From: Isurus oxyrinchus
Taxonomy: Eukaryota
Reading direction: 5' to 3'
DNA length: 64,000 bases
NCBI GenBank assembly: GCA_026770705.1
Contig: JANJGN010000034.1
Span: forward strand, 5,766,001-5,830,000
Below the pieces are notes generated by a model. It made no database searches and was not told where the DNA came from. It saw only the letters and a program-made list of their open reading frames with translations. The position numbers were made by a program, and so were the translations under genes. Shown in pieces: positions 1,673-64,000 of the stretch (its first letter is position 1; the number at the start of each line of letters is the position of its first letter).

Positions 1673-1708
1673 AGTTGGATAATGCCAAGAAAGCTTCAGA
1701 CGGTTCAG
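1673..1708 (+). CDS. 36-nt phase 1-1 micro-exon of coiled-coil repeat gene, (E)LDNAKKASDGS
   Basis: Acceptor tttctcttttcag, donor gtagtg, 36 nt, no stop; near-identical paralog at 9238 with homologous flanks. Confidence 0.7.
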
Positions 1709-2274
1709 GTAGTGACACAATAAATGTTTATGTAAACGAAAATGGTTTTGCTCATTATTGCTCAGTCTAACTTTATAGCATCGATGTCAATCATATGTTT
1801 TCGTAAACATCAAAGCAAATTAATTTTTGCTGGGACGTATAAATGATCCCAGATCCTTTGCTGCACAAAGGTAATCGCTATTGCCATTCTCCAGAATTTT
1901 GGGGATTATATTTTTGGATCGTATTGGATTATCAAAAGTCTTTTTTTCACAGTTGCAAAGAAAATACAATTGCCGTTAACTTGTAATACACGTGTGCCTT
2001 CATTGCAAAACATAGAAGCTCCATGCCGGAAGATAAAGTTTTACTGATGGCAAAAAAATAATAATTTTTGATGGAATTCATAAAATTAATGTCCATCACG
2101 ATAAATGTACTTTGGAAGCTTAAGGGTCCCATATTCATTGCGTCCCTTGGCCGGATGGTTTATAATTCTAAACTAGATCGCCCATTGCTACTGGATCTGC
2201 AGGGCCTTATTTTCTAAATTTCCATAGTTTCTGGAACTCATGTATCAATTTGAATATTTGTTCACTGCAATATT

Positions 2275-2712
2275 TGGGGAGGTGATGGCATAGTCGTGAT
2301 GTCACAATATTAATAATCCACAGGACCAGCCTAATATTATGAGAGTAGTAGGTACAATCCCCCAACATGAAAGCTGGAAGAATTGGAGGTCAATTAGTAA
2401 ATCGAATAAAGCTAGTCTCAATATTGGAAGCCGTAAAACTGAAACCAATTGTCACAAAAAACTCAACTGGCTTCTTCTTTATGGAAAGTAATATCCCATC
2501 CTTACCTGGACTGATCTACATTTGTAGCCATGATACACCATGTTCCATGTGTAATTGGGCTGTCCTACGTGTGACACCAGACCCAAAGTAATGAAGTTTG
2601 CTCGTGGCTGTGCCTGGACATTTTCTAACAACCCTCTTAGTTCCAGAGCAATCAGGAACGAGCAACACATTCTAGCCTTGGCACAGTCGACAACATTCCA
2701 TTAAAGATGAAG
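2275..2712 (+). mobile_element. Degenerate tRNA-derived SINE
   Basis: A-box-like tggcatagtcg head; body motif ccatccttacctgg shared with the copy at about 10900-11270. Confidence 0.55.
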
Positions 2713-4721
2713 TAATATTGAAGAAAGGTAAAGTTTACATTGCAGTAACTAAAGCCAAACATAACTGGATTGGTCCCTGTGACGAGATGTTGCCTTATTA
2801 TAAATTGCTGATCAATTACGGTGAATATTCTCTCAAAAAGAAAGAAGAGGGTCACTTTGGACCATACTAAATCAAGATGGACTTGTTCCAGGCGACCATG
2901 TTAGATTTTTCTTTTTCCGCTGTCCTGATAAACGGGTGCAATGGGTTACATACTGAAGATAAGGCTTAGGGCTTGTATGTGACAAAATTAAAGCATTAAA
3001 ATTGCTGCGAATCATTGAGCTTTTCACCGAAGACGGCTTTGGCTGGTCCCTTTTTGAAAATACTTAAGGTTGAGATTAACATAACATGAACCTTTCATGG
3101 AACCAAGTGTCAAGGGGAGCCAGTGCACAAGCAGAGTTAGCTCTAAGGTCCTTACCTTCCACTGCTGATCCTTTTATTTGTGTGTTCTTGTATTCTTGTG
3201 AATTAGCTTCCAAATTTGCAAATCATACTAAGTGCCTGCTGCAATCATATGGCCACAAATGATGCTGGACATCTTTTAAAAAAACGAATGGCGACTTTGA
3301 TTAGTATTGTTCAGAAGGCATTTCTTCCTTTCCTGCCTCCTGAAAAGTCCGTCGAGTGGACATGCCCACCATATCTGCCTGACCCGCAGCCGTTAAACGC
3401 TCAGATGAAGTTAATTGCCTTCGGCCGCGACTTCTAGAGTGCATTTGATAGGAATTCCACCTCAGAGAGCTTGCCGGTCAATCTCATAGGCGAGGGGCAT
3501 TTTTTTTTTTTTGCAGTTCCTGCGGCGCTAGAAGCTACAATAGACATAACTGAAACTACAAACATTACAGCGAGATAAGTCCCAGTAGCCCAGGAAAAAG
3601 GGAGTTTTGGTGGTAAAAACGCGTGAGGCCTGAGGAGTCTTAGTATAAGCCGTTTTGATGCTGGTGTGAAGGGAGGCACTGAGGAGCTTCTCAGGGATAA
3701 GAATATTCCGGTGTGGCGCCAAGTCATAATCTTAGTTTGCTTGAAGGGTATGACACGAAGATCCAGCAAACCAACTCCCCACTCCAACTCCCGGAAGACC
3801 AACCAAGACACCCCTTCACCACCACAACCCACAACCCTACCCTTCCCTCGCCCACCATAGTCCGACCTAAAGCATGAAAGTAACGAGATACTGGACAAGT
3901 GTGCATAAAATGTGAAAGTGTAAAGCCGCCTTGAAAGTTCCTCAGAAAGCTTGTTTCAAAGTTTATAATCACTGGAAGAGATTATTTTTGACGCATTTGA
4001 TGTTGAATGGTGGCACATACTGCATAGTGAAATGGGTTTAAACTATTCAAACACATTAACGCTTATGAGCAAGTGATGGCTGTGTAGAGATCCACCTGTC
4101 ACCATTCATGACCTAAATGCTTATTCTACTGTCAATTGCATCAATGCACCTCAGGGGAAATGGCCTTTTGAACCAGCTGGACTATGGCAAGAATTTGATT
4201 TAACCCCCTGCAAGCCCTTTCGGTAAAATATGTGATCATATTCACCGAAGGGAGGCAGAAAAATCCAGTTATATTTAAAGAGGTCCTGGTTTCAAATCCG
4301 TCTATCATCTCGCCCCACCCCACCCACCGCCCCCCCCCACCCGCCAACCCTCCGATTGCAATGGATCATTTTCCAACATGACAATTGTACAAAATATTTG
4401 CGTTCCTCTAATTCAGCCCATATTTGTATCAACATTTCCTGCGGCTAACACCATTAATGCCAAATGCTTAGTGTCTGAATGTATTTAATACTTCCTTGAA
4501 CATATACCCCGCCAGATTAATCTCATCTATATTAAAGCTCTCATTAAAAACAGTTTTTCACAAATTATTCGGTCACACATCACAACATATCTTTCGATGC
4601 TTCGTTTTCAATTTGTTCAGCTGGGACTCTGGTGTGCACGTCTGGCTCTTATTTGCATTATTTTGCAATGAGGATTTTTTCCAGAATGCGTCTTCCAAAC
4701 ACAAGTTAATGTCGATTGAAT

Positions 4722-4856
4722 AAAAGCAAGATACTGCGTTTGCTGCAAAGCATAAAGTAAAACAGAGATTGCTGAAATAGAAACTCAGCCATCCTGCAGC
4801 AACTGGAGAGTTCGAAAGAGAGGTAGGGTTTCGAATGGAACGTGATACTTCTTCGG
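4722..4856 (-). mobile_element. Short Penelope pLTR-derived element remnant
   Basis: aaagcaagatactgcg...aaaacagagattgctgaaa...actcagc resembles the inverted pLTR end at 57181-57270. Confidence 0.5.
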
Positions 4857-5875
4857 TATTAAAGGCATTTAAAAAAGTACTGGTTTCTATGCTATTGTAA
4901 AGAGAAGTGGGAAGTAGAACAAACGAAAAACTGTGGGGTGTGTTGGAGATCTGGAGTGATTAAACACCAAGCATATCATGGAACAAAAGCCGAAGGGAGT
5001 CTTGTCGGATCTAATGGATAATAGAAACATTAATCCAGATATTAATCTCAGCAGCCAGAAATAAAATACTTCCCCAATGCTTCTGAAGTTTAATGAGGAG
5101 CTGTTTTAAAATTCAGTTTACTTCTGATTGAAATACGATGGTCAAAATTGGAAATGCTTTCATGGACATGGCAATTTGGCACAAACATTTTTGGCAATGA
5201 TGCACTGTGCATCACAATAGATGATATAAATGAAACTGAATCGGACAAAAATGGACAATCGGAAAATGCGTCCAGCTTAGAATCTCCGTCAGATAGATTT
5301 CAGTGCCCAATATCTGAGGGAAATGGGATGAAGTAGCCACAGCTTTAAGCAGCATTAATCACCAGGGTGGACATTGCATCCAGGCATCTCAACCGTTTGA
5401 TGGAAGATACACGTTCCTCAAAAGAAACTGATCCATTATGAATGAAAATTAGGAAGGACGTGCCTTAATTCAGTGAAAAAGCTGAAGTGGAGGAAGAGAT
5501 TTTGATATAAATTTCAGAAGTTCTAAAGAGGCTTTCAGACGCCATGGGTTATGTTTATCTGTAATCAACATCAATGGTCAGCGTAGATAGACGTTTAAGT
5601 AGTTTCATAACGTTTTTGGAACATTGCTGAGTGCAAATTGTCTGCCCCCAATTCCAACATTACAATGGTGAGTGTACTTAGATCTCAATTCATTGACTGT
5701 TATTCGTTCTTGGACAATCTGCATTGGGACAGCGGGTAAATAAATGCAAGTTGAATCATGCTATAATAAGCCGTTATTGCAATGGAGAACAGGTTTTTTC
5801 AGCCAACGTGGAGCTAGTCGTCTTCATATCATCAAATTTTGATCAAATAATATAATTGTTTTGTTGGTCTTGCAG

Positions 5876-5911
5876 AACTGAAAAAATGCAAAGAATCTTT
5901 AAAAATATTAG
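5876..5911 (+). CDS. 36-nt phase 1-1 micro-exon, (E)LKKCKESLKIL
   Basis: Acceptor ttggtcttgcag, strong donor gtaaga; matches the E-L-x-x-C-K-K-S-L-x-x-L consensus. Confidence 0.8.
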
Positions 5912-6039
5912 GTAAGAAAGGCACCCTTTTCAGTATAATTTTTTTACAGGGTTAATCCCAAAATGGAGCATATAAAAAAGTGACTCCATGTTCCTGTGCA
6001 GAAAAAGAAGAGCAGCAGCAATGCTGGAGGAGCTTTCAG

Positions 6040-7749: not shown

Positions 7750-7776
7750 AAGAAAAACTGAGTCGGTGCCTGGATG
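7750..7776 (+). CDS. 27-nt phase 1-1 micro-exon, (E)EKLSRCLD
   Basis: Long pyrimidine tract ending ttcctgtag, donor gtaaag, 27 nt; Leu at position 4 as in the other 27-nt exons. Confidence 0.75.
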
Positions 7777-9237: not shown

Positions 9238-9273
9238 AGCTGAATAATGCCAAGAAAGCTTCAGATGCCTCAG
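9238..9273 (+). CDS. 36-nt phase 1-1 micro-exon, (E)LNNAKKASDAS
   Basis: Acceptor ttctttctcatttcag, weak donor gttata; paralog of the exon at 1673. Confidence 0.65.
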
Positions 9274-9679
9274 GTTATAAAATAGTAAACGTTTGTGGAA
9301 ACAAAAATGGCTGTGCCCAATGTTGCTCAATCGGGATTTATAACATGGTGGTCAATCATAGAGTTTTCATGATTTCAATGCCAATAAGTTTTGGCGTGAA
9401 AATATATATGATCTCCGACGTTCTGTCGCCCAAAGATAATCACCATCAACATTCTCCGGAATGTAAGGGAGTGTATTCCTCGAGACAATTCTTACAATGT
9501 TACCAAGAACAATAGGACTGAGGATTGTGAGAGTCTTAATGAAAAGTAAATGGCCACCTAAAACTTGATAGAACTGTGAAAAAAAAGCATTGCAGTCAAA
9601 AGTATATTTAAAAAGCAGATTACATAGTTAATTGTATTGAAAAGTAAGAGAATGGCTCATGCAAGCACTGTTACCTTGA

Positions 9680-14947: not shown

Positions 14948-14983
14948 AACTCGCTGCATGCAAAAAATCTTTGCAACATTTAG
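14948..14983 (+). CDS. 36-nt phase 1-1 micro-exon, (E)LAACKKSLQHL
   Basis: Acceptor ccttcctttccacaattccag, donor gtatga; matches consensus. Confidence 0.8.
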   Translation, partial: NSLHAKNLCNI

Positions 14984-15281: not shown

Positions 15282-15308
15282 ATGAAAATTATGCATCAAA
15301 TGATTGCG
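15282..15308 (+). pseudogene. Degenerate 27-nt class pseudo-exon, (D)ENYASNDC, donor GT>GG
   Basis: 17/27 identity by eye to the exon at 48222; acceptor ttgtag; downstream ggaatatattttgaaactga resembles gtaatcactttgagactga after the exon at 41469. Confidence 0.45.
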
Positions 15309-15379
15309 GGAATATATTTTGAAACTGAATTTCCTGGGTCACTGTATTAAAAGTACCTGAGTCAGAACATGGCACGTCA

Positions 15380-17100: not shown

Positions 17101-20029
17101 AATCATCGTGGACATGAGGTGAAATGACATCTCTCAGAGGGTCGGTAGTCATTGTAATTAGCATTCACTGAGAGCAATTGGGGGGTGGCTCATTGATTAT
17201 ATTCAAGATTGTGTTCGACCAATTTATGTTCGATAAGGGCCACATTTGATTTACGTCATGATTTCCTGTCATGTGAGAATTGTGATTGGATAGACCAATT
17301 ATTGACCCAGAGCTCTTTCCAGATATCGGGAAGGTTGTACCACGAGGTCGTGGAATCCGGGGGAATTGTGTGCCCTGTCGCATATTTGTACTGGTTGGCT
17401 TCTTTTTGTGTTTCGAATTCACTGCAGCTTGATATAAAATCAACTGGGGTGCTCCAGAATAAGATTTTTGAAAACTTAATTCTACCGTTTATCTACATTT
17501 CTTCCTCAGGACTGCATTGGTTAGCCAATCCTGTTTAACGCATGCTGGGACTTCAACACACGCAATTTCACACAGAACAGAGATTTCTACCACCTCCATA
17601 CTGTTAATAAACGTGGATTTGTCTTAGCCAACATTCTTGCCCTAAAGCAGTTCATAGTGATTTCCAAATGAGGATGAAGATCTCAGAAAACAGTACATCT
17701 AAAATGGGGCTGTAAACAATGAACTTTAAAGAAATGTACTTTTTTCGATATCACCTTTTCTACAGGTTTGTATAAATACATGCACATCTATAATACAATG
17801 TTGAACACGTTACAACCTGGGAACTGTTTCAAGCGTTCACTTAAACAGCTATTGGAGCACCAATTCTGCACCAAGTGCAAGTTTACATTATCTTAAAACA
17901 AATACTTTCTGGAATGACCTGTTCGTCTTGCAGGTTCAAAAACAAATTAAACGTTAATGATTCATACTGCCTCATGCTACTCAATACCTGAGTGCCGCAT
18001 CATTCAAGTTAATGATGTTAGTTGAGGCTCCTTCTCCTGATAATTGTTTCATGTCCAACTTCACAGTATAGATCTTTTCCTTTTCAATGTTTCTGCTGTT
18101 CTGCATCAAGCATGGACTTCAAAACGTTTATCTGAATGAGGGTTGATATTCTGGCTTGACATTATCTTCGAGGGAAGTATAGAGCGGGCTATTAAGTTAC
18201 AGATTATGGAGGAAAACTATGTTCTGTTACCCATTTTGCACAGCAACGTAGAGGTTTATAGATGGGTGTTGCAGTTACCCAGAGTAGCATAGCGTTAGTG
18301 CCAGACAGCATAATGGAAATTGCGCTCAATTTTTAAAAAAAAGCACCTTTCTCAGCACAAGGCGTGTATTGAGGACAGCCCTTCAAATCACCTCAAGGCG
18401 TGAAACGCTTGCGACGAGTAGATTGTGAGCGCAAGTTCATATAGCATTTGCACTGGTGATTCTTGTCATCTAATCAGCCTCAGGCCCAGTCCAGGAGATG
18501 TGTCATTTAGGACTCGGTCAATTCCTCCACTACAGATGTTAGCATAAAAAATCCTGCTGATGACTCTGAAATTCCATCATCCTCTGATCGTTGTATATGT
18601 TTTACCTATCTACCACATTAGGGCAATCGGCACCACCATTGCTTTATCACGTGAGGGGAGAGAGTCGGCTGCAAACAGCAGCAGGTATCATTGCCAATGA
18701 TTCACATGATACTATGAGACGCCATTAGTTTTGCACTCAACGTTCAGAACTGCCTTCTCATTCCACGCCCCTCTGCCTCCATCGTGGGTGTCTCTATGCT
18801 GCTGCCTGGCCACAAAAATGCGCAAGCATGTATTTTGAGATGGCTGAAATTCTTTGGATATGATTATATTCTGATGTTTCTTCACGACTGTGTGGGAGAA
18901 ATCTTCGAACTTCAGCAATACTCAGTTAACTAATTTGTAGGCTGTATGGGTTTTTGGAGATTGAATCTTACTAGTCCTTAAGGTTATTGTTGAGTGATTT
19001 GTCAGTTTCTTGTTACGCATTGTAGTAATGGTATGTCGAACTGTGCATTTCATTGTGCATTTATGTGACACAAATGCTTTTCCTACAAGCGAACAATTTT
19101 GGCGAGAGCATTATCAATGTGATATGTGCAAGCAAAATGCAATTCGATTCGATGAAGGTGATATCCACACATATTTATTGTAACGGACATGATTGCAGCA
19201 GACGGACGGAAAATGTGTGCTATAGAAATAGATGCACCACTAGACAATTTGTTCAAATAAAGACAAAACGCTCGAACGCACCAGAAAATTGTGGCATTTG
19301 CCCACTTACGTGTAAAATTCGTCCCAAATGCAATTCTTTCGAATTCAGCCCAATCAGTCTATTTTAAATCACCAGCAAAGCGATGTAACGTGCCATCAAC
19401 AGTGTTACACAGCGGCACCAACACATGAATAGTTAATTTACAAGTATTCTCCTCGGCCTTGTTGGAACATAGTCCAAAACGTGAACTCCCCAGCTAAGAC
19501 AATTGTGGCTCTCCTTGAAATCAAGGCAGAATTTGACTGATCATCGCATCCAAGAGCGAGACAAGGAGATACAAACGTGAAAAGCAATAAGGGTCCCTTG
19601 AAATTTTGGAAGACTCTTCGAAAAACTTACCCTTATTCCAGAGTACCAATTACGAAAAATTGAAAATGCTGGTCTGATTTTCCTTGTGTTAAAGAACATG
19701 ATGAGAACAAGGGTATTTATGACAGTTTTGAAGGTGATTGGTTGGAGCAGGTCAATGCCGATTTTGATGTTAATGATGGCGATGGTGCAGATGGTAATAT
19801 TGATAATGACCATGAAGACAGTGTTACAAAACCTCAGTACTTCACTTGATTTAAATTCGGAGGTTGGGAACTCCATTTCCCAAAAGGCCTTAGGCCATTC
19901 ACACATTCAGCGGTGGCTAAATGGGCGAACCTGCACAGTTGTCCATTTTAATATTTTAGCCTTAAGCAGGCCATGCACGCCTTTGGATATGAAGAGAAAC
20001 AAGTAAGTGAAAAGATGCGAAACAACGGG

Positions 20030-20879: not shown

Positions 20880-20915
20880 AACTAGCTGCATGTCAACATT
20901 CATTGAAAGAAATGG
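20880..20915 (+). pseudogene. 36-nt class exon with lost donor (GT>TT), (E)LAACQHSLKEM
   Basis: Acceptor ctctctctgctccag intact and coding consensus clear; followed by ttaaaa. A GT one base upstream would give a frameshifting 35-nt exon. Confidence 0.65.
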
Positions 20916-24900: not shown

Positions 24901-26775
24901 ATCCCAGAACAATAGGGCAGCTGAGTAAGCAGCCTCTCTCCCAAACCACTCCAACTGATGGGGCGGCAACGAGATGTAGCAGCCAATAACGTCAGCTTAA
25001 GGCACCTTATCCAATACACGGGTATGTCACTTGTGAATTTGTGTTCGCCTTAAAATTGGGACCCATATGTTTGCCATCGCTAACTAGTGTTCTGTGGTTT
25101 TGTTTTGGACACAATAAAGTTCACCTTTGCAACCATGGCTGACGGTGCTTTGTTTGTGGTGCATTTTTCTTTTTCACATACTTATCATGAGTGTCTGAGA
25201 GAACATTGACCTTTCTGTACTAAGCCCCATATTTGAAGCTAAACAGGAGGTAGATGTGGCAACTAAGTGCCATGTCTGCAAGTGCCAGGAAATGTTGCTC
25301 CTGCTGATTCATGTCTGTGGAGCTTTGTGAAGGTCCCTTGGAATAAATGATCGCGGCTGTCCCTGCCTCCTTGGTGCAGATGCGGGTCATTGTTCTGCCC
25401 CTCATTATTGCCCTCTGTTTCCTAAACATCTGAGGCACTGCTGGATTGATGATATGCAGCCTCACCCAGGGTGTCAAGTCTCCGTCATCAACTGCATCCC
25501 CCATTTCCAGTGCAAGATTGTGCAGGGCACAGCAGACTACCTTTAGCAGACAAACACAATCTGGGGACACTGGACAGCGCCCCCTCATTGGTCCAGTCAA
25601 TGGGAGTGCATCATGAGAAAACCAATGGCTCTCTCCACCACAGGTGTAATGGTGCCCTGGTTCCTATGGTGTCGATGCTCAGCCTCTGTTCTTGCACAGT
25701 GTAGTGGCATCATGAGTCGCCTTCTGAGGGGACATCCATTGTCTCCCAGCAGCCAACCATCCAGCAGAGCCAGAGCGCTAAAGAGACCTGGCACTTGGGA
25801 GTGTCTGAGGATGTTGGCATCTTGGGAGCTGCATGGGTACTTTGCACGGACTTGAAAATTCTGCATCGTCTGATCACACGCTATCTGCACGTTCATGGAG
25901 TGGAAGCCCTTCCTGTTGATGAAAGCACAGTGTTTACATTTTGGCGTCTTGATGGCCACATGTATGCAATCTAAAGCCCCCTGGACGCGGATGAAGTTAG
26001 CAATGGTCACGAAGCCTCAAGGTAGCTGTGCCTGACCTGCGTGGAATTGGATGAAGGTGGATACCCGTCTGAACAGAGCATCTATAACTTGTTTGACAAA
26101 AGTGTGGACAGTTCATTGGGAGACACCACAAAGATCATCCACCGAGCGCTAGAAGGAACTAGGGGCATTGAAGTGGAGGGCAAGTGTGGGCTTCAGAGTC
26201 GCTGTCATGAGCAGTCCAGCCACACATTTTGGAGTGATCTCAAGGCCAATCATCTGACAGACATAGTCGACTGTCTCCCTTGAGAGTGAGAGATTCCTTC
26301 GGTGCTGCACCGCAGTCATATTGAGGTAGCTGCTACACCGCCTGTATGTCTTGGCCGCAGGACAGAGCCGTTGTCTGTGGTGGCCCCTTGCACCTTGGAC
26401 AACTCCTTGGCCCTGCGCCCCTTGTACATATAAGGAGAAGTGCAATTATGACTCGGTGCTCTGAATACAAATCACTTTCCAAAAGCACAAAACTTACATT
26501 CAGTTGAATAAAGAGAATCTGGATTGAAACAAACTAAAACAAAGAAGGATCAGAAATAGTGATTATGCAACTTCCATAAAATTGTGAAAATTCAAGGTCT
26601 CCATTAATTCCCAAATGGGGGGAAAATGTGCCTCATGTGGACCCCCCTGGATGAAACTCAAGGAACATGGCAATAATGTTAACTTCCCTTGTACACGGCC
26701 GGGCAAGTGATTCAGTTGCGGGTCATTATCAGCTTGTCAAGCCGATTAAGTGTATCCAACCTAATATTGTATGCA
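21935..26775. mobile_element. Decayed PIF/Harbinger DNA transposon (transposase on -, Myb/SANT-like remnants on +)
   Basis: GC-richer block starting at cagaatttta (21939); DDE transposase remnant; + strand exon remnant AKPHHNAREQQRSGG after ttttgcag (about 23114); right boundary approximate. Confidence 0.65.
25400..26445 (-). pseudogene. HARBI1-like Harbinger DDE transposase, frameshifted
   Basis: VQGALDCIHVAI, FINRKGFHSMNVQIACD, YPCSSQDANIL, GWLLGDNGCPL, VERAIGFL and CCALHNLAL are Harbinger motifs, split across frames. Confidence 0.9.
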
Positions 26776-27600: not shown

Positions 27601-27627
27601 AAAAGCAGTTGACAGCAAAAGAGGAAG
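27601..27627 (+). CDS. 27-nt phase 1-1 micro-exon, (E)KQLTAKEE
   Basis: Acceptor tttcgttacag, donor gtaatt; paired with the exon at 28150 across a 522-nt intron. Confidence 0.8.
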
Positions 27628-28149: not shown

Positions 28150-28185
28150 AACTAGAAGCATGCCAAAAAAAGTTAAAAGATTTAA
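28150..28185 (+). CDS. 36-nt phase 1-1 micro-exon, (E)LEACQKKLKDL
   Basis: Acceptor ctttattttccag, donor gtgagg. Confidence 0.8.
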
Positions 28186-33570: not shown

Positions 33571-33606
33571 ATCACGCTGCATGCGAAGTCTTACTGAAAT
33601 ATCAAG
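33571..33606 (+). CDS. 36-nt phase 1-1 micro-exon, (N/D)HAACEVLLKYQ
   Basis: Acceptor ttttttctgctgcattccag, donor gtaaga; GCTGCATG core shared with the exons at 14948 and 20880. Confidence 0.75.
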
Positions 33607-40450: not shown

Positions 40451-40481
<31 letters not shown>

Positions 40482-41468: not shown

Positions 41469-41495
41469 AAAAAGAATTGAAAGCAAAAGACGGCG
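41469..41495 (+). CDS. 27-nt phase 1-1 micro-exon, (E)KELKAKDG
   Basis: Acceptor ttttgctcaattgcag, donor gtaatc. Confidence 0.8.
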
Positions 41496-42262: not shown

Positions 42263-42298
42263 TACTGAATGAATGCAAAAAATCTTTAGAAGATTTAG
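42263..42298 (+). CDS. 36-nt phase 1-1 micro-exon, (V)LNECKKSLEDL
   Basis: Acceptor tttcgttttcttcattacag, donor gtgaga. Confidence 0.82.
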
Positions 42299-45671: not shown

Positions 45672-45698
45672 AACAAAAGCTAAAAGCAAAAGAGGACG
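45672..45698 (+). CDS. 27-nt phase 1-1 micro-exon, (E)QKLKAKED
   Basis: Acceptor ggtctttttcag, donor gtaatt. Confidence 0.82.
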
Positions 45699-46296: not shown

Positions 46297-46332
46297 AACT
46301 CATCATTTGCCAGGAAGATCTAAAGGACTTGG
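46297..46332 (+). CDS. 36-nt phase 1-1 micro-exon, (E)LIICQEDLKDL
   Basis: Acceptor tttgtttcattacag, donor gtgcga; 598-nt intron after the exon at 45672. Confidence 0.78.
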
Positions 46333-48221: not shown

Positions 48222-48248
48222 AGAAAAAGTTGACATCGAAAGATGACG
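48222..48248 (+). CDS. 27-nt phase 1-1 micro-exon, (E)KKLTSKDD
   Basis: Acceptor ggtctctttcag, donor gtagtt; flanks homologous to those of the exon at 45672. Confidence 0.75.
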
Positions 48249-48866: not shown

Positions 48867-48902
48867 AACACAGCAAATGTGAAGAAGAGCTAGGACGCAT
48901 AG
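48867..48902 (+). pseudogene. 36-nt class exon with lost donor, (E)HSKCEEELGRI
   Basis: Acceptor ttactttctgccag; Cys5 and Leu9 conserved; at the expected distance (618 nt) after 48248; followed by aaggaa instead of gt. Confidence 0.6.
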
Positions 48903-49955: not shown

Positions 49956-49982
49956 GAGAAAAAATGAAATCAATAGAGGACC
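49956..49982 (+). CDS. 27-nt class micro-exon with GC donor, (G)EKMKSIED (possibly a pseudo-exon)
   Basis: Acceptor gtcttttgcag; downstream gcatttcattttc aligns with gtaattcattttc after 45698. Confidence 0.5.
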
Positions 49983-50711: not shown

Positions 50712-50744
50712 AGCTCACTAAATCCAAAGAAGTGAAGCATTTTG
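50712..50744 (+). CDS. 33-nt variant of the 36-nt micro-exon, (E/Q)LTKSKEVKHF
   Basis: Acceptor ttttactgcacgccag, donor gtgaga; one codon shorter, frame preserved. Confidence 0.7.
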
Positions 50745-51235: not shown

Positions 51236-54200
51236 TAGCTAAAATTTAAAATGACCTCTTAACGCCGATGCTTTCCAGTGATCATCTGAGGGGTCACCTG
51301 ACACAGTCAAAACGAAAGGCGTTCCTTTAAAAAGCTGGCCGTTACTTTGTTCCAGATGCCCACAAATTTCTGGATTGGACAGCCAGCCCCCCAGCATTCT
51401 GTGGGCAGATTAGCTGTCTTCAATCTGACTTTGCCGCTAATTCACAGGAATTAGTGAATTAACCGGAATGCTTTCACGGCGGACTGGAAGCCGGAATGCC
51501 ACCGGCAACCGGCTGTGAAAACCGTTATCTGCGAGCACTTGTATTGTTCATCTCTTGGAATCCTGGTGGTCAGTGATTTCAGACAGTGGTCAGGAAAGCA
51601 GGGCCGATGTGAAGCAATTTGCGTGAGCCATCTGTAAAGCCAAAAAACTAAAGATCGGTATGAACAGTGTAATCCTGCTGAGGAAACATATGATTTTATC
51701 GCAAGAGTTCACAACCCCATATCGCGGATTATTAGTATGGCCTTGAACCATGGAATCATCTTGGAAGCGACGCTCTCACAAGCAGTAAACAAAACAAATT
51801 GAACATTTGTGGCTGAGATAATAGTACTGGTGGAGCAGAGATGAGACAAACCCTCCTACCAGAGGGTAGGAAATGACAATTTGCTGCGAGATGAATAGGG
51901 GTAGAATTACAGGAATCAAAATAGCTCTTGGAACGACTTTGCACATTGGCCGAGAACGCATATGCTGACGAAATGTCCTCCGAATTTTTGCTCTTTCAAA
52001 AATTTGAGGTTTTCGTCATACTTGCTACTGAACATCACTTCACATTGTTTTCCTTTAGCATTGCTTTACACATTTCTTATTTTTGTCGCCTTTGAGGAAG
52101 AGTGTGGTCATAGTGCAAGGGTTCCCGAGGTCACCATCAGCCTCTTAAGTCAAATCGTGACTGATGCTTCCAAGCCTAAAACTTCTTAGCATGTGACTTG
52201 CATTCGGAGCACCAGGCTTGCATGTAGCAACGCTAATCCTTGGAAATATTACACTTATTCACAGGTAATGTTAATTTTATTCTAATTGTTACGGTATATG
52301 TTAGTAACATTTTTTCCATCAATGCCTTATTTTCGGGCCAATTCGGCTGTGTAGGTTATTCGTCGCCAAGGAATCATACCAATGTTTGGGGCTCAGATGG
52401 GCATCTCTAAATGTTAGGTTGTGAAACCGCCTCACTGAAATTTTACAGAATTCAAGCAAACGAGATTCGGATTCAGCGTTCTTGTTTTCATAGTGGAATC
52501 AGCAAGAATATGTTTCATTTGCAGACCTTATTGCATCCAACGAATTTCTCCAGATGCTTTATACTAGTTGATGAAAATGACTTTGAATGTTTTAGCAAAT
52601 ACATTGGGTGTTGATCAGACATCAGGATTTATTAAGGCAGATTTTTTTTTTGCAGATTTGTCTCATTATCTAATGCTTAATGTGCAAACATGGGTTATTG
52701 CTCATTCTAAAGGGAACAAACAATCCTTGAATATGATAAAGCAAGACGACAAAGAAATATAAAGTAGAAGGGAAGAGATTGGATCTGATTTAAAAAGTGA
52801 AAAAAAGGCAGTGGGCAATAATAAGTAGGGCATGTTATAACGTCGCAAACATTGTGGGGAAAAAACGGATAATTGGAAATAATAATTCGCTAATTAGTGC
52901 ACGTTCATTCAGGGCAAAAAGCTGGATTGCCAATAAACAACTCCTCATACTTTTCTGTTGACAAAACCAATGCTATTGCTAACTAGTTTTAGTGCAGGAG
53001 TAGATATTCACTTTTTGTAATCAGAAAAAAATTGTCACAATGCTAAAGAGACCTAAAGAAGATTGGAATATGTTTCCAAACATCTCCTTCATAAGTGCAC
53101 TCAGATGACTATATCATATTAAATATTATTCTTCTCGACGCTTTTAATTAGATGCAGAGGCCTACAGACAAAATATGACCTGAAATCTGCCAGAGGACAG
53201 GAAATGGTGCTTCATAGGTGGTTTAGATCCACGAATTTTGAATAAGCATTTTACGGTCAATTAGATAAGTGATTTTGTTTTGAAAGTACAAAAGTATTAC
53301 GATTAGTACTAGTAGTAGCCGTAGGATTAGTATTAGTATCAGTACTGATATGAGTAATAATCATAATAATATTGAGTAAACTCGCATCTTGAAGTGCATA
53401 AACTGCATAAAAAGCAGAGTAAGCCATTAATTGCAGGCGATTTCGAATTGTCTCATAGACATGATTGTAACAAAATCCCGTTTTGAAAGTCAGAAAATAG
53501 CTGAGACAAAAGGGTTTGCAGTGATAATCAACATCCTTCTACTGAGGAAGAGGACCACTCTCACGAGAAACTCGCTGCTCTAGTTTGTAAAGGTAGAGTA
53601 TAAGTTAAGTGAGAAGGTACCTACATTCTGTCCTTGTCTTTAAAAAAATGAAGAGATAATGCTGGAAGTTGAACCGCCAGATTGCAGCATTCCTATGCAA
53701 GCAAAGTTTCCCTCCAGAAAATAATGCCCTTTCGTGTAAAGCTCCTGATGAGTAAACAGTGCCTCCTTTGTGTCCTGATGAAATGAACCAGGTTTCTCGA
53801 AATTATAGAATTATTTTGATTAAGGATAAAGTGTCCCACTTTTTGTCCAATAACACAAGCAAAGTGAATTGGTAACCATAAATATAGAGAGGCACTCAAT
53901 GCTTTGGAACGGTGGTATGCCAGATAGTTTACTGAATGCAAATGTATGTGGACAGTGCTTTGATAAGGATCATTCATCTGTTCATTTTTTTGGTTTAATT
54001 AAATTGTGCCCTAATTGCAGATCTTATCACCTTTGGCATCGTTCATAATTTGTTGTATTATTACTTGAATTTTGCTTGCGAAAAAGCCTTAGCTGGGAAT
54101 TGTGATTTGAGCATCCCCAGTCGCTTCAGGGCAATTGCAATTGCTCATAGTCATGTTTTACAGGGAAAGCTGATTTGCTCGAAAGAAAACCTTTTGTGTA

Positions 54201-56656: not shown

Positions 56657-56692
56657 AACTCAATGAATGCAAAAAAGCTTTGAAGGATGCAG
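56657..56692 (+). CDS. 36-nt phase 1-1 micro-exon, (E)LNECKKALKDA
   Basis: Acceptor ttcttctgtattccag, donor gtacga; close paralog of the exon at 42263. Confidence 0.8.
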
Positions 56693-57180
56693 GTACGAAA
56701 ATTCGTCGAACAGTTTTTTAGAATTTCTACCCTCTAAAATCACATTTCTTCAATTGTCATGTTTTCCCTTTTCTTAGGGGAAAAAAAAGAATTGAACGAT
56801 GTCAGCTTTCAAATGTTGAGCAGAATTGTTAAGCCCATACTTTTTCAGATCCATGTTTTGTGGTGAAACTGGCATGAAAGTACAAGGTGTTTATCGAAAA
56901 AAAAGTAATTTCGAAGGGAAATAAAGATTTTTCAGCCTCGTACCAGCATTTTGTGATTGCTTGGTTTCTCAGAAAAGGTTCAATTAACAGAGGTTCTTTC
57001 ATTGAGTGCAGAAATGGCCAAGCAAGGGACATGAGAATGACAAGGGATATTTAGAGGGTGGGCTTAGACATGATTCCAGTTAAGAAGCACCAAATACTGA
57101 TATCAAAAACACGACGTCCACTAATGAATAAAGGAGGGAATTCAGGTGGATCAATAATTACCAGGGAACGGTTGTAATTT

Positions 57181-57836
57181 AAAAACAAAAAAACTGCGGA
57201 TTCTGGAAATACAAAACAAAAACAGAATTACATGGAAAAACTCAGCAGGTCTGGCAGCATCGGCAGAGAAGAAAAGAGTTGACGTTTCAAGTCCTCATGA
57301 CCATTCGACAGAACTTGATTTCGAGTCCAAGAAAGAGTTGAAATATAAGCTGGTTTAAGGTGTGTGTGTGGGGGGCGGAGAGATAGAGAGAGAGAGAGGT
57401 GGGTGGGGGGTATGGTTGTGTGGACAAACAAGCAGCGATAGAAGCAGATCATCAAAAGATTTCAACGACAATGGTACAATAGAACACATAGGTGTTAAAG
57501 TTAAAGTTGGTGATATTATCTAAACGAATGTGCTAATTAAGAATGGGTGGTAGGGCACTTAACTCTAGTGGAGGTGTTTTTTATATATATAATGGAAATA
57601 GGTGGGAAAAGGAAAATCTTTATAATTTATTGGGAAAAAAAGGAAGGGGGAAACAGAAAGGGGGTGGGAAATGGGGGAGGGAGCTCACGACCTAAAGTTG
57701 TTGAATTCAATATTCAGTCCGGAAGGCTGTAAGGCGCCTAGTCGGAAGATGAGGTGTTGTTCCTCCAATTTGCGTTGGGCTTCACTGGAACAATGCAGCA
57801 AGCCAAGGACAGACATGTGGGCAAGAGAGCAGGGTG
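57181..57836 (-). repeat. Inverted copy of PLE 3' end/pLTR
   Basis: Reverse complement of about 60959-61569, plus the extension seen at 58229-58279. Confidence 0.9.
57277..57315 (-). ncRNA. Variant minimal type I hammerhead ribozyme motif
   Basis: Reverse complement AGTT-CTGTCGA-ATGGTC-ATGAG-GACTT-GAAACGTC-AACT; core deviates from CUGAnGA. Confidence 0.5.
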
Positions 57837-57843
57837 AACCCTG

Positions 57844-58280
57844 AAACACCCCCACTAGAGCTATACCTTGACATCTCTACCATCCATTCTTAATTAGCAC
57901 ATTCGTTTAGATAATATCACCAACTTTAACTTTAACACCTATGTGTTCTACTGTACCATTGTCATTGACATCTTTTGATGATCTGCTTCTATCACTGCTT
58001 GTTTGTCCACACAACCACACCCCCCCACACACCTCTCTCTCTCTCTATCTCTCCGCCTCCCCCACCCCCCCCCCCCCCCCCCACCCCACACACACACACC
58101 TTAAACCAGCTTTTATTTCAAGTCTTTCTTGGACTCGAAATCAAGTTCTGTCGAAGGGTTATGAGGACTCGAAACATCAACTCCTTTCTTCTCTGCCGAT
58201 GTTGCCAGACCTGCTGAGTTTTTCCAGGTTATTCTGCTTTTCTTTTGGATTTCCATCATCCGCAGTTTTTTTTGTTTTTA
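57844..58280 (+). repeat. 5' direct partial pLTR
   Basis: Near-identical to about 61213-61569 (aaacacccccactagagc...gctgagtttttccagg). Confidence 0.9.
58144..58182 (+). ncRNA. Variant minimal hammerhead motif (decayed)
   Basis: AGTT-CTGTCGA-AGGGTT-ATGAG-GACTC-GAAACATC-AACT. Confidence 0.45.
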
Positions 58281-58317
58281 TCTCTGTGTTTAATTGACTG
58301 CCACTGCTCTTCAAAAA

Positions 58318-61109
58318 ATGCCTACCTCCTTGAAGAAATTCTGTTCCCCTCTGCGACAAGATTTCCGTACGTCTCTGTTGCCTTGTTCACCTTCTTTGCT
58401 TTACATTTCCCTCCTGGTGTTTGACAAGGTGTTTACTAAATCCCGCTTTCACAGCCATTTCTCCTTTCTCAGTGACTGTTCCCGTCGCCGACATAGCTTG
58501 GATTTCAGCTGAAATTCCACCCCTCATGTTTCGAACCCACCCAGGATTACCGGTATCTCCGGGACATTAAACGTTTCTCGGACTGCTGTTCCGGTCACAT
58601 TCTGAAATCCACACTCAGTGCCATGCACCGCCAGATGAACACACCGGACTGCTGTTCCGGTCACATTCTGAAATCCACACTCAGTGCCATGCACCGCCAG
58701 ATGAACACACTCGACATCTCTCTCCAGCAGCACCGCCGTAGCCTTTTTCAAAGCTGCACGTGCCCCCAGTTTCATTTTATCCTTCGGGTCATCCGACGCC
58801 TCAACAAGAAACTTTTTCTCTTTCTCTCAACTGCTACGGAACGGAAGCTCCAACAACCCATCGACACCAAAACCAATCTAGGACCCTCCACCCCTGCCTG
58901 TCCCTCCATCCCCAACCTTTCTTCCAATACCAACCCCAGCCGTGTATTCACTATACCCCCTGACCTTCCCCTCTCCGACGCTGAACGTTCAGTGCTCAGC
59001 AAAGGACTTAGTTTCATACCCTTACGCCCTCACCTCAATGAATTTCGGGCTCGGCATGATACTGAACTCTTCTTCCGCCATCTTCGTCTCCGGGCTCACT
59101 TCTTTGGGCAGGAGTCCTCTCCCAGTTCAACGGATCCTTTTACCCATCTCCAATATTCTCGCTCCACCTGGACCCCTCCCTCTGGATTCTTACCTTCTCT
59201 CGATCTTTTCATTGAGAACTGTCGGTGCTCCTCTCACCCATTCTAACCTGTCTCTCTCTGAACTTACTGCACTCCATTCTCTCAGGTCCAACCCTGACAT
59301 TGTCATCAAACTCGCTGACAAGGGTCGTGCTGTTGTTCTTTGGCGCACGGACCTCTACCTCGCGGAGGTTGAGAGTCAACTCGCAGACACTTCCTCCTAC
59401 CTATCGCTGGACCATGACCCCACCACTGAACATCAAACCATTGTTTCCAGGACTGTCACTGACCTCGTCTCCTCTGGGGAACTCCCTCCCACAGCTTCCA
59501 TCCTGATAGTCGCCGAACCTCGGACGTCCCGCTTCTATGTCCTACCCAAAATCCACAAACAGAACTGCCTCGGTAGACTGATCGTCTCAGCTTGCTCCTG
59601 CCCCACAGAACTCATTTCTCATTATCCTGACTCCCTTCTCTCTCCCCTTGTCCAGTCCGTTCCCACCTACATCCTTGATTCCTCTGACACCTTACGTCAC
59701 ATCAACAATTTCCAGTTCCCTGGCCCCAACCGCTTCCTCTTCACCATGGACGTCCAATCCCTCTACACCTCCATCCCCCAGCAGGATGGTCTGAGGGCCC
59801 TTAGCTTCTTCATTGAACAGAGGCCCGAACAATCCCCATCCACTACTATTCTTCTCCGTCTGGTTGAACTTGTTCTCACGCTGAACAATTTCTCCTTCAC
59901 CTCCTCTCACTTCCTCCAAATGAAAGGTGTGGCTATGGGTACCCGCATGGGCCCCAGCTATGCCTGTCTCTTTATGGGGTATGTGGAACATTCCTTGTTG
60001 CAGTCCTACTCCGGCCCCCTTCCACAACTTTTTCTCCGGTACATCAATCAGTAATTCAGTGCTGCTTCATGCTCCCGTCGGGACTTGGAAAAATTTATTC
60101 ATTTTGCTTCCAGTCTCCACCCCTCCATCATTTTCACGTGGTCCATCTCTGACACTTCACTTCCCTTCCTGGACCTCTCTGTCTCAATCTCTGGTGATAG
60201 ACTGTCCACCAATATCCATTACAAACCCACCGACTCCCACAGCTACCTCGACTACAGCTCCTCAAACCCCGCTTCCTGTAAGGACTCCATCCCATTCTCC
60301 CAGTTCCTTCGCCTTCGTCGTATCTGTTCCGATGATGCTACCTTCAATAACATTTCCTCTGACATGTCCTGCTTCTTCCTTATCGGAGGATTTCCACCCA
60401 CGGTCCTTGACAGGGCCCTCAACCGTGTCGGGCCAATCTCCTGCGCATCCGCCCTCACGCCTTCTCCTCCCTCCCAGAAACATGATAGGGTCCCCCTTAT
60501 CCTCACTTATCACCCCACCAGCCTCCACATTCAAAGGATCATCCTCCGCCATTTCCGCCAACTCCAGCATGATGCCACCACTAAACACATCTTCCCATCA
60601 CCACCCCTGTCGGCATTCTTTAGGGATCGCTCGCTCCGGGACACCCTGGTCCACTCCTCCATCACCACCTACTCCTCAACCCCCTCCTATGGCACCACCC
60701 CATGCCCATGCAAAAGATGTAACACCTGCCACTTCACTTCCTCTGTCCTCACCGTCCAAGGGCCCAAGTACTCCTTTCAAGTGAAGCAGCATTTCACTTG
60801 CATTTCCCCCAACTTAGTCTACTGCATCCGTTGCTCCCAATGTGGTCTCCTCTACATTGGAGAGACCAAACGTAAACTGGGCGACCGCTTTGCAGAACAC
60901 CTGTGGTCTGTCCGCAAGAATGACCCAAACCTCCCTGTCGCTTGCCATTTTAACACTCCACCCTGCTCTCTTGCCCACATGTCTGTCCTTGGCTGCCGCA
61001 TTGTTCCAGTGAAGCCCAACGCAAATTGGAGGAACAACACCTCATCTTCCAACTAGGCACCTTACAGCCTTCCGGACTGAATATTGAATTCAACAACTTT
61101 AGTTTGTGA
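58318..61109 (+). pseudogene. PLE polyprotein (reverse transcriptase + GIY-YIG endonuclease), disrupted
   Basis: IKLADKG, YVLPKIHK, FTMDVQSLYTSIP, GVAMGTRMGPSYA; catalytic YIDD reads YINQ followed by a stop; VYCIRCSQCGLLYIGETKRKLGDRFAEH; frame breaks near 58490, 59225 and 60990. Confidence 0.93.
58579..58710 (+). repeat. Perfect 66-bp tandem duplication inside the PLE ORF
   Basis: cggactgctgtt...gatgaacacac occurs at 58579-58644 and 58645-58710. Confidence 0.95.
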
Positions 61110-61483
61110 TCTCCCTCCCCTATCCCCACCCCCTTTCTGTTTCCCCCTTCCTTTTTTCCAATAAATTATTAAGATTTTCCTTTTGCCACCTATTTCCATT
61201 ATTTATATAAAAAAACACCCCCACTAGAGCTATACCTTGAGAGCCCTACCATCCATTCTTAATTAGCACATTCGTTTAGATGATATCACCAAATTTAACT
61301 TTAACACCTATGTGTTCTATTGTACCATTGTCGTTGACATTTTTTGATGATCTGCTTCTATCACTGCTTGTTTGTCCACACAACCACACCCCCCACCCAC
61401 CTCTCTCTCTCTCTATCTCTCCGCCCCCCACACACACACCTTAAACCAGCTTATATTTCAACTCTTTCTTGGACTCGAAATCA

Positions 61484-61522
61484 AGTTCTGTCGAAGGGTC
61501 ATGAGGACTCGAAACGTGAACT
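61484..61522 (+). ncRNA. Variant minimal hammerhead motif (cleavage triplet GUG, likely inactive)
   Basis: AGTT-CTGTCGA-AGGGTC-ATGAG-GACTC-GAAACGTG-AACT. Confidence 0.45.
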
Positions 61523-62392
61523 CTTTTCTTCTCTGCCAATGCTGCCAGACCTGCTGAGTTTTTCCAGGTAACGGTTGTAATTTGATTAACTTTCCCAGGG
61601 GTTGCCATTGGGAAATATACCTGTATGCATTTAACTGTCTTGGACGAGCAGAGATAGAAGAGCTGTAGAGTACATGCAAACAAATGTGGCGCGTAACATC
61701 TAATTAAGGGTATATTTGGTTGCAATTCGGCCTTGCCTGCCCCATGAAGTGAACGAAAAGGGGAATTGTCTGGACAGGCAAGTCGACATCGCCTTTTTTA
61801 CTGTTGGTTTCTCAAGGAGGATTTTCTTGAGGTGCCCAAGAATGAAATGCTAAATTCCTGTATAGCAGTGTGCAATGTATATAGAACAAACGATTCTATG
61901 GGTTATTTATATTTCTATTGTATTAAAAATCATTGATTTATTTTATAATTTATTTACGAGATTACGCTTCTCCCTGCTTTCACATCATTTTACTTTCCGT
62001 TCGGAAATCCGCTTGGGAAATTGGTTGTGAGCCTCATTCCTGAACGTAGCGAGGTGGTTAGTTTGCTGGGCGCAAGGAACAGCGATAAATCAACCATTGT
62101 TGTTAGTATTTATCGTATTTTTAAAGAGATATTTAAATACTTTATTAAAAGTGTGAGTTCAACTTGAACTCACATCTCCGCATCACCAGCACAGACAGCT
62201 GGATTATACCGCAGTAACAGTATTGGAGATGCAAGAACATCTGATTGCTTGTGGATGGTTGATCATTTAATAAAGCACCATGAATATACCCAACGAGGAT
62301 TGGCCATTCTACTTGTGTTGTGTAAGAGCGTATAAGTGAAATACACGTTGGTTTACCTGTTTGTTTTTAAGTGATGTTTGTCTTCTCAGCAG

Positions 62393-62419
62393 ATGATAAG
62401 CTGAAAACAAACGAAGAAG
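62393..62419 (+). pseudogene. 27-nt class exon with lost donor (GT>TT), (D)DKLKTNEE
   Basis: Acceptor tgtcttctcagcag; matches the x-x-K-L-K-x-x-E-E consensus; followed by ttataa. Confidence 0.6.
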
Positions 62420-62869
62420 TTATAATATCATTCTTTGAATGACATGTTAACCCAAATTGTGTGCAAATGTTATTGGCTGATAGCATGGAACAGGCCGAGT
62501 CGCCAGGTAGCAGTGCCCATCTCAGTCCAGGGGTTTTGAAAGTAAACTGAATCAAAACAAAGCCAGAGCACCACTGCAGTAGCATTGTTAGTGCAGGCGA
62601 TGCAGTTTCTGATGAGGTGCAAAATCGTACCTATTCTATCAGATAACAATTAAAGATCACACGCCCATCACCGTGTCACCCAGCTGACTGGAGCTCCTCA
62701 ACTACCATTGCAAAATTCTGTTGAAAATACCTTTGAATAGGTATCACATTGTACCCAAATAAATATGTACAGTGAATTTGAAGTCATTAGAAAATGCATA
62801 CGATGGATTTTCAGATTACTGCAAGGCAGATTGCAAGAGTAAAAGTTAACGTCTGTTATTGAGTGTTGC

Positions 62870-63925
62870 AGCAGTTGGGAAGTTGTCTTTGGAGGGTCTC
62901 ACTATTGGGGCGATTATAGATCACAATTTTCATAAATGATTGTGACAGCGATATGAAAAAAGAAAATTTCTGCTTTTGCAGTTGCATCAACTTCTGGGCT
63001 CCCGGCAAATTGGAATAGGCAATGCTCATGAGGACAGCAGCAATTTAGAGGATAAAATTAATACCATGGTGGATTGGCAAATAATTGACAAACACATTGC
63101 AAAAAATGGCAGACACAAGGAAGCACGCTTTGCCCATACAAATTGTGAGAACTTATCATTCTTGGAACGTGCAAGTTTCCAGGGTACGGGAATGAATGCT
63201 ACAAGGAGTCCAAGTGAGCCAATCGTGTAAGTTCTGCCAGAGCATGGCAAACATATCACACAACAAAAACCAATACAATGCTTTGTAGAAGAAGGGTACC
63301 TGTGAGAAGTCAAGTCATGCTAAACGTACATCGGGCCTTTGAGTAGAGCCCATTTAGAGGACCGCATTCAATTCTATTGACAATGTTATAGATAATAAAC
63401 ACATAGCAACACTAGAGGGAGAAGAGAAGGTCCAGGGAATAATATCAAAAATCTGTGCCTCTACATCTCAGGAAAATACTAAGTTGCTGGCTCTCTTTTA
63501 TCCTGGGTGAAAAAAGGCTATGAATACCAAGAGATGACGTATGGAGGCATTTAAATTCGTAATGTATTGAGTTGGCCGATGCAGAGAGAACGTTTACTTT
63601 CATTGGGAAGAGCACAACTGGTGGTCATAAATTTATGATAGTCACCAAGAGAACCAATACTTATACAGCAGAATATTCTTTCCCTAAAAATAGGGGAACA
63701 TGTGAACTCACTATAAAGCAAGTGGATAAAGCAAATCGTATGCAATTATATTGAATTGATGAGAAAGCTAGACAAGCATATGATGGAGAAGTGATTCAGA
63801 GGGTTGCTTGAGACATATGCGCATGGATGAGGTTACATTGGTAAACCTTTCAGGATATTGTACTGGAGTATAAACTGGTTGGGCGGCCGAACGGCCTAGT
63901 TCTATGCTGCACAGCCGATGTAATC
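62870..63925 (+). mobile_element. Highly degenerate CR1 3' fragment
   Basis: atggtggattggcaaata, aattgtgagaacttatcattc, gggccttt...agagcccatttagag; tail gggcggccgaacggcctagttctatgctg. Confidence 0.6.
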
Positions 63926-63983
63926 ATCTGAATATAGGTAATTAGGTTGTTTTTACTTTCTCTGATTTGTTATTGGATTTCAG

Positions 63984-64000
63984 TTCTGAAAGAACAGCCA
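63984..64000 (+). CDS. Probable start of a further 36-nt class micro-exon, (V)LKEQP..., cut by the window edge
   Basis: Acceptor ttggatttcag after a pyrimidine-rich stretch; TTCTGAAAGAA vs TACTGAATGAA of the exon at 42263 (9/11). Confidence 0.45.

Follow-up and report, generated by a model that had tools for sequence, protein, structure and literature searches.

A stretch of 64,000 nucleotides (nt) of the Isurus oxyrinchus genome (4.98 Gb), taken from the forward strand of contig JANJGN010000034.1 (C34:5766001-5830000, + strand; hereafter the window), contains a series of very short exon-like segments, mostly of 27 and 36 nt, which together would read as a coiled coil. The locus raises the question of which gene these segments belong to, how far that gene extends and what kind of protein it specifies. 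An original prediction, made from the letters of the window, had proposed a coiled-coil gene of symmetric micro-exons related to butyrophilins and avian BG genes and forming the stalk or tail of a receptor. The present analysis indicates that the window is an internal slice from midway along an array of about 400 micro-exons, 1.5 Mb long and ending in a B30.2 exon, and that the array is likely one gene, here termed gene B, whose product would be a probably cytosolic rod of about 4,200 residues. The window makes up about 4% of the locus, gene B being about 24 times larger.

Micro-exons in the window

The 15 segments first listed as exons all lie on the + strand. They comprise nine 36-nt exons (1673..1708, 5876..5911, 9238..9273, 14948..14983, 28150..28185, 33571..33606, 42263..42298, 46297..46332 and 56657..56692), five 27-nt exons (7750..7776, 27601..27627, 41469..41495, 45672..45698 and 48222..48248) and a 33-nt exon with AG/GT ends (50712..50744), probably a 36-nt exon less one codon. 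The exon at 42263 has intact copies in paralogues A and C, and that at 41469 an intact counterpart in paralogue C (see below). The claimed splice ends, multiple-of-three lengths, phase 1-1 and open frame were borne out in all 15: each segment is preceded by AG, followed by GT, 27, 36 or 33 nt long, in phase 1-1 and free of stops. Exon bodies are 57-61% alike, against 26-33% for their flanks, in agreement with the claim that the exons are better conserved than the introns.

To score the exons, leave-one-out profiles were compared with all other sites on both strands. All nine exons of the 36-nt class outscored every other site on either strand, as did three of the five in the 27-nt class. Exon 27601 was beaten by one + strand site, and a decayed copy at 49956 was the top unlisted 27-nt site. 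Exon 7750, which belongs to a divergent subclass with near-identical copies upstream of the window at -527 and -8707, was weak, with 34 sites on the + strand and 11 on the - strand scoring above it. The 33-nt exon at 50712 has acceptor and donor scores of 9.4 and 7.3, yet it falls under the threshold of the catalogue described below, which therefore includes 14 of the 15 listed exons.

Six further + strand look-alikes lack a GT donor: decayed 36-nt exons at 20880..20915 and 48867..48902, decayed 27-nt exons at 49956..49982 (GC for GT, in a weak donor context) and 62393..62419, and two weak cases, a possible decayed 27-nt exon at 15282..15308 and a possible decayed 36-nt exon at 52525..52560, both of which drop below threshold under a broader model. 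The earlier count of about 20 exons in the window thus holds when decayed copies are included, the intact ones numbering 15. Three symmetric AG..GT candidates at 19695, 32068 and 55091 (39, 27 and 24 nt) have moderate splice scores and atypical sequence, and their number is within the chance rate of the minus strand.

A dispersed repeat present in both orientations had been named as the finding that would speak against exons. When the genome was searched with one exon pattern, 35 of 35 matches fell on the + strand of C34, with none in the control. The 27-nt exon pattern gave single matches at C6:40415345, C8:169485643 and C18:20643573; its control also gave three, and these are probably due to chance.

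Extent of the array and its terminal B30.2 exon

Exon profiles were built iteratively and used to scan C34 from 4.796 to 6.460 Mb (1.664 Mb including the window, with no N). This yielded 413 candidate micro-exons between C34:4868774 and 6392683, all on the + strand and all phase 1-1, spanning 1.52 Mb. Two shifted-acceptor candidates outside the repeat zone were removed before this count (415 to 413). By length the catalogue holds 200 exons of 27 nt, 148 of 36, 31 of 21, 27 of 15, 4 of 30, 2 of 24 and 1 of 33; the median spacing is about 2.4 kb and the largest gap between candidates 52 kb. Joined, the 413 exons form an uninterrupted frame of 3,995 residues with a mass of 462 kDa, in which K, E, L and D are abundant. 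Splice models alone gave + and - strand hits of 28 and 2 at 15 nt, 25 and 1 at 21 nt, 140 and 4 at 27 nt, and 123 and 3 at 36 nt, while at other lengths from 15 to 45 nt the two strands were about equal; this control is generous because the models had been trained on + strand hits. The style of the sequence shifts blockwise along the array, from a 5' zone through a 21-nt zone (5.08-5.30 Mb) to a repeat zone. Outside the catalogue, 27-nt exons with a GC donor in good context were seen at C34:6292324, 6332972 and 6369472, possibly flanked by GC-AG introns.

The array closes with a 21-nt exon, a 27-nt exon encoding Trp (C34:6395161-6395187, +) and an intact phase-1 terminal exon encoding a B30.2 (SPRY) domain (C34:6395819-6396339, +), 566 kb past the window. 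The terminal exon matched Pfam SPRY with E 1.8e-13, its best PDB match was BTN3A1 (E 6.8e-20), and a fold predicted from an eight-row alignment matched BTN3A1 at a predicted local distance difference test (pLDDT) score of 60. Prediction from the single sequence was not usable (pLDDT 39), and a search of the ESM Atlas returned generic SPRY clusters only. The proposed kinship with butyrophilins and BG genes is upheld by this C-terminal B30.2 domain and by the 27-nt Trp exon, which a butyrophilin of the same genome also has. From 4.817 to 6.46 Mb, C34 holds this one B30.2 exon only. The nearest other one on the upstream side, at 4,816,515, is the end of paralogue A, so gene B can span 1.58 Mb at most.

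Exon order and heptad register

Residues in the two main exon classes follow a fixed pattern, with L or I at position 2, C or L at 5, L or V at 9 and L or C at 12 of the 36-nt exon, and L at 4 and K or C at 7 of the 27-nt exon. It follows that a 27-nt plus a 36-nt exon makes three heptads, a 27-nt plus a 15-nt exon two, and a 21-nt exon one. Hydrophobic power at a period of 3.5 was 0.96 in the joined sequence, against 0.38 +/- 0.04 (maximum 0.47) in 100 shuffles of exon order. Alternation between 27- and 36-nt exons was found at 246 of 347 junctions against 170 +/- 9 after shuffling, and outside the higher-order repeat described below at 186 of 247 against 122 +/- 8. Both values lie above the shuffles, indicating that the order of the exons, and not their frame alone, is non-random. 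The expectation that any subset of exons would stay in frame was correct as far as frame goes; heptad register is kept only by combinations of 9+12, 9+5 or 7 residues.

Decayed exons in and near the window tend, by eye and without statistics, to form 27+36 pairs (15282/20880, 48867/49956, 62393/64244 and 65338/69040, in window coordinates). At 70059 a 27-nt exon has acquired a new donor and now ends after 21 nt; its partner at 74779 is dead. A further dead exon, at -1219, lacks a dead partner.

Growth of the array and selection on its exons

The 5' part of the window belongs to a set of four units of about 7.5 kb, 65-80% identical to one another. Further downstream, at about C34:5884818-6166858 (+), lies a higher-order repeat whose 12-exon unit encodes exactly 112 residues (16 heptads) and recurs every 25.6-29.6 kb. 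Nine complete copies of this unit, 16-19% diverged, were compared. Their splice nucleotides were invariant at 48 of 48 positions, against 2037 of 4364 intron columns (47%), and none of the 108 exons was broken, against about 43 expected from a neutral star-tree simulation, a figure that is an overestimate because the copies share history. The ratio of non-synonymous to synonymous substitution rates (dN/dS) was 0.56 within the repeat and 0.45 for the B30.2 exon between genes B and C. One exon of the unit no longer has its ancestral acceptor; all copies listed retain an AG located nine bases further in. These genomic comparisons indicate that the splice sites of gene B are under purifying selection. 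An assembly artefact was considered as the origin of the repeats and rejected, as repeat introns differ by about 17% and genes B and C by 10-22%.

Paralogues and relatives in cartilaginous fishes

The genome contains seven close B30.2 exons, all open, five on C34 (A, B and C on the + strand, D and E on the - strand) and two on contig C21. Exon-pattern matches lie upstream of six of them, and micro-exons of the seventh were found by direct scan. The smaller C21 paralogue has about 15 exons in 50 kb; the other is a giant that occupies about 89.78-91.35 Mb, a span for which only the 5' end and four pattern matches were sampled. Paralogue C is a tandem copy of B without the 240 kb at C34:4850373-5091193, a segment that includes B's candidate start exon (junction at C34:6455835). 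It has an intact B30.2 exon, and its first retained 21-nt exon, at 6459146, has an in-frame ATG; the coding region of C could begin at this point, preceded by a first exon without coding sequence. Paralogue A has, near its 3' end at C34:4801745, a 27-nt exon with an in-frame TGA, which is either skipped or marks a truncated allele. Between B and C, at C34:6415857-6416807, lies a fragmented sequence of a rhodopsin-family G protein-coupled receptor (7tm_1, E 8.5e-5).

Both C21 members sit inside a huge TRIM/butyrophilin cluster at about 82.9-118.2 Mb, which accounts for 138 of the 150 B30.2 matches scored (of 455 candidates). The cluster contains true IgV-IgC-transmembrane (TM)-B30.2 butyrophilins as well as RING-B-box TRIM genes, and is possibly the major histocompatibility complex region.

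A single-sequence search for longer relatives found none, whereas an alignment search found models in cartilaginous fishes. Coiled coil plus SPRY-only or SPRY-alone models occur in catshark, bamboo sharks, electric ray, skate and chimaera (XP_038671249.1 and XP_038672306.1, catshark; GCC29436.1, bamboo shark; XP_069775384.1, ray; XP_055510696.1, skate; XP_042191566.1, chimaera). They are 178-945 residues long and are named TRIM-, A33- or BTN-like or hypothetical. In an unrooted B30.2 tree, the micro-exon genes and the shark, ray, skate and chimaera models formed one branch with 100/100 support, outside which fell all eight butyrophilins and nine TRIMs included. The family had been thought possibly lineage-specific, a view contradicted by its spread over sharks, rays and chimaera; among the matches placed on trees, it is found by sequence in cartilaginous fishes only. 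Gar and sturgeon clusters (P0100 and P0123) of SPRY proteins with long N-termini and, by eye, no RING lie outside the family branch. Our literature search, limited to listings and mostly to papers outside subscription, returned no description of this micro-exon coiled-coil B30.2 family.

The skate model maps in order on the last micro-exons of gene B (score 131, maximum of shuffles 103) and of gene A (128, maximum 77; 60 shuffles), and a catshark model maps in order on the small C21 paralogue (253, maximum 172 in 8 shuffles). Isoforms of the relatives, which are automatic gene models, differ internally by 9 residues in all four clusters compared, and in two cases also by 6 and 7 residues. The clearest indication that the micro-exons get joined and skipped comes from these models. 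In agreement with this, the suggestion that splicing could tune the length of the coiled coil is backed by the skipping of single exons in the relatives' models.

One gene or several

The fuller account that we propose, with somewhat more doubt than belief, is that about 400 exons over 1.54 Mb are joined in one transcript, giving a rod of 0.6 micrometres with a B30.2 head, and that gene B exceeds in size every other member of an undescribed family dating back to the split between sharks and chimaeras, in which rod length is set by the birth, death and skipping of exons under a heptad-register rule. The single transcript would be about 13 kb long and encode a protein of about 4,200 residues and about 480 kDa. 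A coiled coil rises about 0.15 nm per residue, and two chains of 3,995 rod residues would pair as a parallel coiled coil about 0.6 micrometres long, whose tip would carry a pair of ligand-binding B30.2 heads. Such a rod may function in the cytosol as a long tether or as a scaffold, binding like a TRIM though lacking the ligase, and has precedents in the chicken BG-derived zipper protein and in enterophilin. The gene would grow by tandem duplication, in exon blocks of about 7.5 and 27 kb and as whole-gene copies, and shrink by loss of splice sites, both gain and loss of exons being frame-safe because of the phase 1-1 symmetry. Selection would favour exon orders that keep register (9+12, 9+5 or 7 residues), and exon skipping likely tunes the length of the rod.

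The span of 1.54 Mb includes a candidate first coding exon of 111 nt at C34:4859457-4859567 (+), which has strong splice sites and an internal ATG and is unproven. The DNA upstream that B and C have in common gave no evident conserved coding exon, nor did N-terminal motifs taken from the relatives point to a credible start, the single high-scoring candidate having no Met. Four read runs of the same species, whose RNA nature is a guess, gave coverage on repeats only and none on the B30.2 exon, and are evidence neither for nor against the transcript.

Several observations count against a single functional rod gene. The junctions of gene B are predicted from genomic sequence, and the strand control is flattered by training on the + strand; judging by the minus-strand counts, about 10-15 of the 413 entries may be false, and for 10 the acceptor is a weak, shifted one. 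The 111-nt start exon has no match in any paralogue. The longest database relative, of 945 residues, falls far under 4,200, and this catshark model scored 188 against the 5' exons of the C21 giant, its putative orthologue, within the range of shuffles (154-219). The register is loose, with 74 27-27 and 10 36-36 junctions, three 36-36 neighbours among the listed exons of the window and a periodicity peak in the repeat zone at 3.4 rather than 3.5, and the isoforms of the relatives skip single 27-nt exons. Values of dN/dS near 0.5 represent moderate constraint only. Lastly, one skate model starts with a signal-peptide-like stretch, and the rod contains 133 Cys, many at core positions, which would suit a secreted protein.

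Some of these points would also fit an interval made up of several shorter transcription units, with no molecule containing all of the roughly 400 exons. The blockwise changes of sequence style and the short database relatives are as expected from such units, and paralogue C has lost the 240-kb segment yet retains an intact B30.2 exon and an in-frame ATG in its first retained exon. On the other hand, the interval contains no second B30.2 exon, and the gap at 5.064-5.094 Mb contains no relevant Pfam domain. Phase and strand are common to all exons, with no gap above 52 kb, and automatic annotation likely truncates micro-exon genes, the database model P0001 being the B30.2 exon alone. We regard several units as unlikely, and a single gene B as the likely source of the array.

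Alternative readings: secreted protein or membrane receptor

It appears quite improbable that gene B instead encodes a fibre or jelly protein that is secreted, cross-linked by disulfides and tipped with B30.2. Position 5 of the 36-nt exon, a core position, is most often Cys (67 of 148), and the skate member of the same subclade starts with 17 hydrophobic, signal-like residues; this stretch, however, ends like a read-through splice acceptor before an exon of the 27-nt type and may be intron sequence. Upstream of the candidate start exon of gene B there is likewise an in-frame ATG and a hydrophobic run, though a stop interrupts them and the run is the pyrimidine tract. The catshark, ray and chimaera models viewed have no clear leader, scans of five 5' intervals for leader exons gave 19 hits on the + strand against 30 on the - strand, and N-glycan sequons are not enriched (11 against 14 +/- 3 expected).

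The reading as a membrane receptor of butyrophilin or BG type whose cytoplasmic tail is giant, or as a stalk like that of CD23, was largely refuted and is very unlikely, although much of gene B recalls butyrophilins: heptads on symmetric micro-exons, 31 of them of 21 nt, a 27-nt Trp exon and a B30.2 domain, with two paralogues inside the C21 cluster. Over the 1.664 Mb, tblastn with the IgV and TM exons of a butyrophilin of the same genome found no match, and its IgC exon gave a best E of 0.012 to a sequence with a stop. Of two weak IgC matches both were rejected, one containing a stop and neither the Ig cysteine pair. A TRIM RING/B-box exon gave a best E of 0.61 over the same region, and a motif search for it was also without hit; the positive controls, butyrophilin and TRIM exons of this genome, were matched. 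No Ig, RING or B-box domain was present among 219 Pfam references of + strand open reading frames (ORFs) of at least 80 residues in five intervals, and none of 37 PF22705 (IgC) matches lay near a family member. A scan for TM-like exons gave two on each strand, and the maximum hydropathy of the rod over 19 residues was 0.75. The terminal exon encodes B30.2 and not a lectin, no lectin family occurring among 64 ORF references downstream of it, and the B30.2 clade stands apart from all eight butyrophilins sampled. The tblastn and TM-exon searches covered the gene B locus, the 5' ends of paralogues A, D and E lying outside them; a genome-wide V-set (PF07686) search scored 150 of 3319 candidates and was uninformative.

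Of the Ig, TM, B30.2 and C-type lectin exons for which inspection of the flanks had been advised, B30.2 was found and the others were not, and of the original prediction the coiled-coil gene of symmetric micro-exons with butyrophilin/BG kinship stands while the receptor stalk or tail does not. That gene B is dead, or a dispersed repeat that mimics exons, deserves hardly any weight, since the decayed share in the window (up to 6 of 21) and the in-frame stop in a gene A exon are set against pattern matches confined to one contig and strand, splice sites invariant across diverged repeats, no broken exon in 108 against an overestimated neutral expectation of about 43, and seven open B30.2 exons.

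Comparison with known systems

As no Ig or TM exon was found, gene B is not filed under butyrophilins or BG genes. On sequence grounds it is also neither a TRIM, no RING or B-box having been found, nor a CD23, as it has a terminal B30.2 exon and no TM exon was found.

Butyrophilins are described as having V, C2, TM, a short heptad region and B30.2, and BG proteins as combining V and TM with a long tail of heptads (PMC8813856). Cartilaginous fishes have butyrophilins, and variation in heptad number is stated in the same source for squamates (PMC12841164). Gene B resembles butyrophilins (BTN3A1 and the C21 copies of the same genome) in its C-terminal B30.2 on a phase-1 terminal exon after small symmetric exons including the 27-nt Trp exon; it differs in that no IgV, IgC or TM exon was found, in having about 400 heptad exons instead of a few and in its separate B30.2 clade. 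The chicken BG heptad tail is encoded by 13-36 exons of 21 or 24 nt, and a zipper protein derived from BG, a soluble tail of heptads, regulates the interaction of actin with myosin (PMC4046983). BG genes and gene B both have a long heptad stretch on many tiny exons with turnover of copy number. BG genes, however, have IgV and TM and no B30.2, whereas in gene B a B30.2 domain follows 413 mainly 27- or 36-nt exons, with no IgV or TM found. Of the 413 exons, 31 are 21 nt long.

Enterophilins are rodent enterocyte proteins of about 65 kDa with a soluble leucine-zipper rod and a B30.2 domain and with no known Ig or RING. Gene B has the same plan of a long heptad rod and B30.2 without Ig or RING, its solubility hinging on the unproven N-terminus, and differs in size, with about 480 kDa predicted. 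None of the matches obtained bore the name enterophilin. The two are likely of independent origin. The TRIM proteins of C21 also have a coiled coil followed by PRY-SPRY, and differ from gene B in their RING/B-box, encoded in one long open frame. CD23-type lectins have a type II TM segment and a C-terminal lectin domain; the terminal exon of gene B is B30.2, and neither a TM exon nor, among the ORF references downstream, a lectin family was found. The cartilaginous-fish models, in contrast, belong to the family of gene B, as they fall in the same B30.2 clade, consist of coiled coil and SPRY only and show the 9-residue isoform differences. For enterophilin, a link to SNX1 and EGFR has been described (PMC13749957).

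In exon number the nearest comparison is human titin, whose 363 exons are called the largest number (PMC12198301). Titin too is giant and modular, with a length adjusted by exon skipping, as is likely for gene B; it is unrelated in sequence and places large domain exons in 283 kb, against exons of 15-36 nt in 1.54 Mb.

Other elements in the window

The region 57180-61571 of the window is a remnant of a Penelope-like retroelement, with long ORFs at 58882-61056 that gave a weak GIY-YIG match (E 9e-4). Its upstream ORF had no Pfam hit and resembles a reverse transcriptase by eye. The remnant has nested repeats on its flanks, both inverted and direct, of 390-620 bp (85-94%), and contains a perfect two-copy tandem duplication of 66 bp (58579-58710). 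A fragment of a DDE_Tnp_4 transposase (25600-26016, - strand; E 4e-17), which we take to be of PIF/Harbinger type, lies in a GC-rich intron segment at 22-26 kb.

Significance of the array

The array is real, under selection and much larger than first seen, and its exon count may be a record: the 413 candidates exceed the 363 exons of titin, if one transcript uses most of them. Annotation can readily overlook gene B, since all catalogued coding exons other than the first and the last are at most 36 nt long. If its reading as one gene is true, it would be a test bed for the recognition by the spliceosome of hundreds of micro-exons at a median spacing of 2.4 kb, and for the exon-by-exon evolution of coiled-coil length. 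The seven paralogues fill at least several megabases of the genome, and the family ranges in size from about 230 residues (the chimaera model) to a predicted length of more than 4,000. It would represent a third branch, free of ligase and free of receptor, beside the TRIMs and butyrophilins in cartilaginous fishes.

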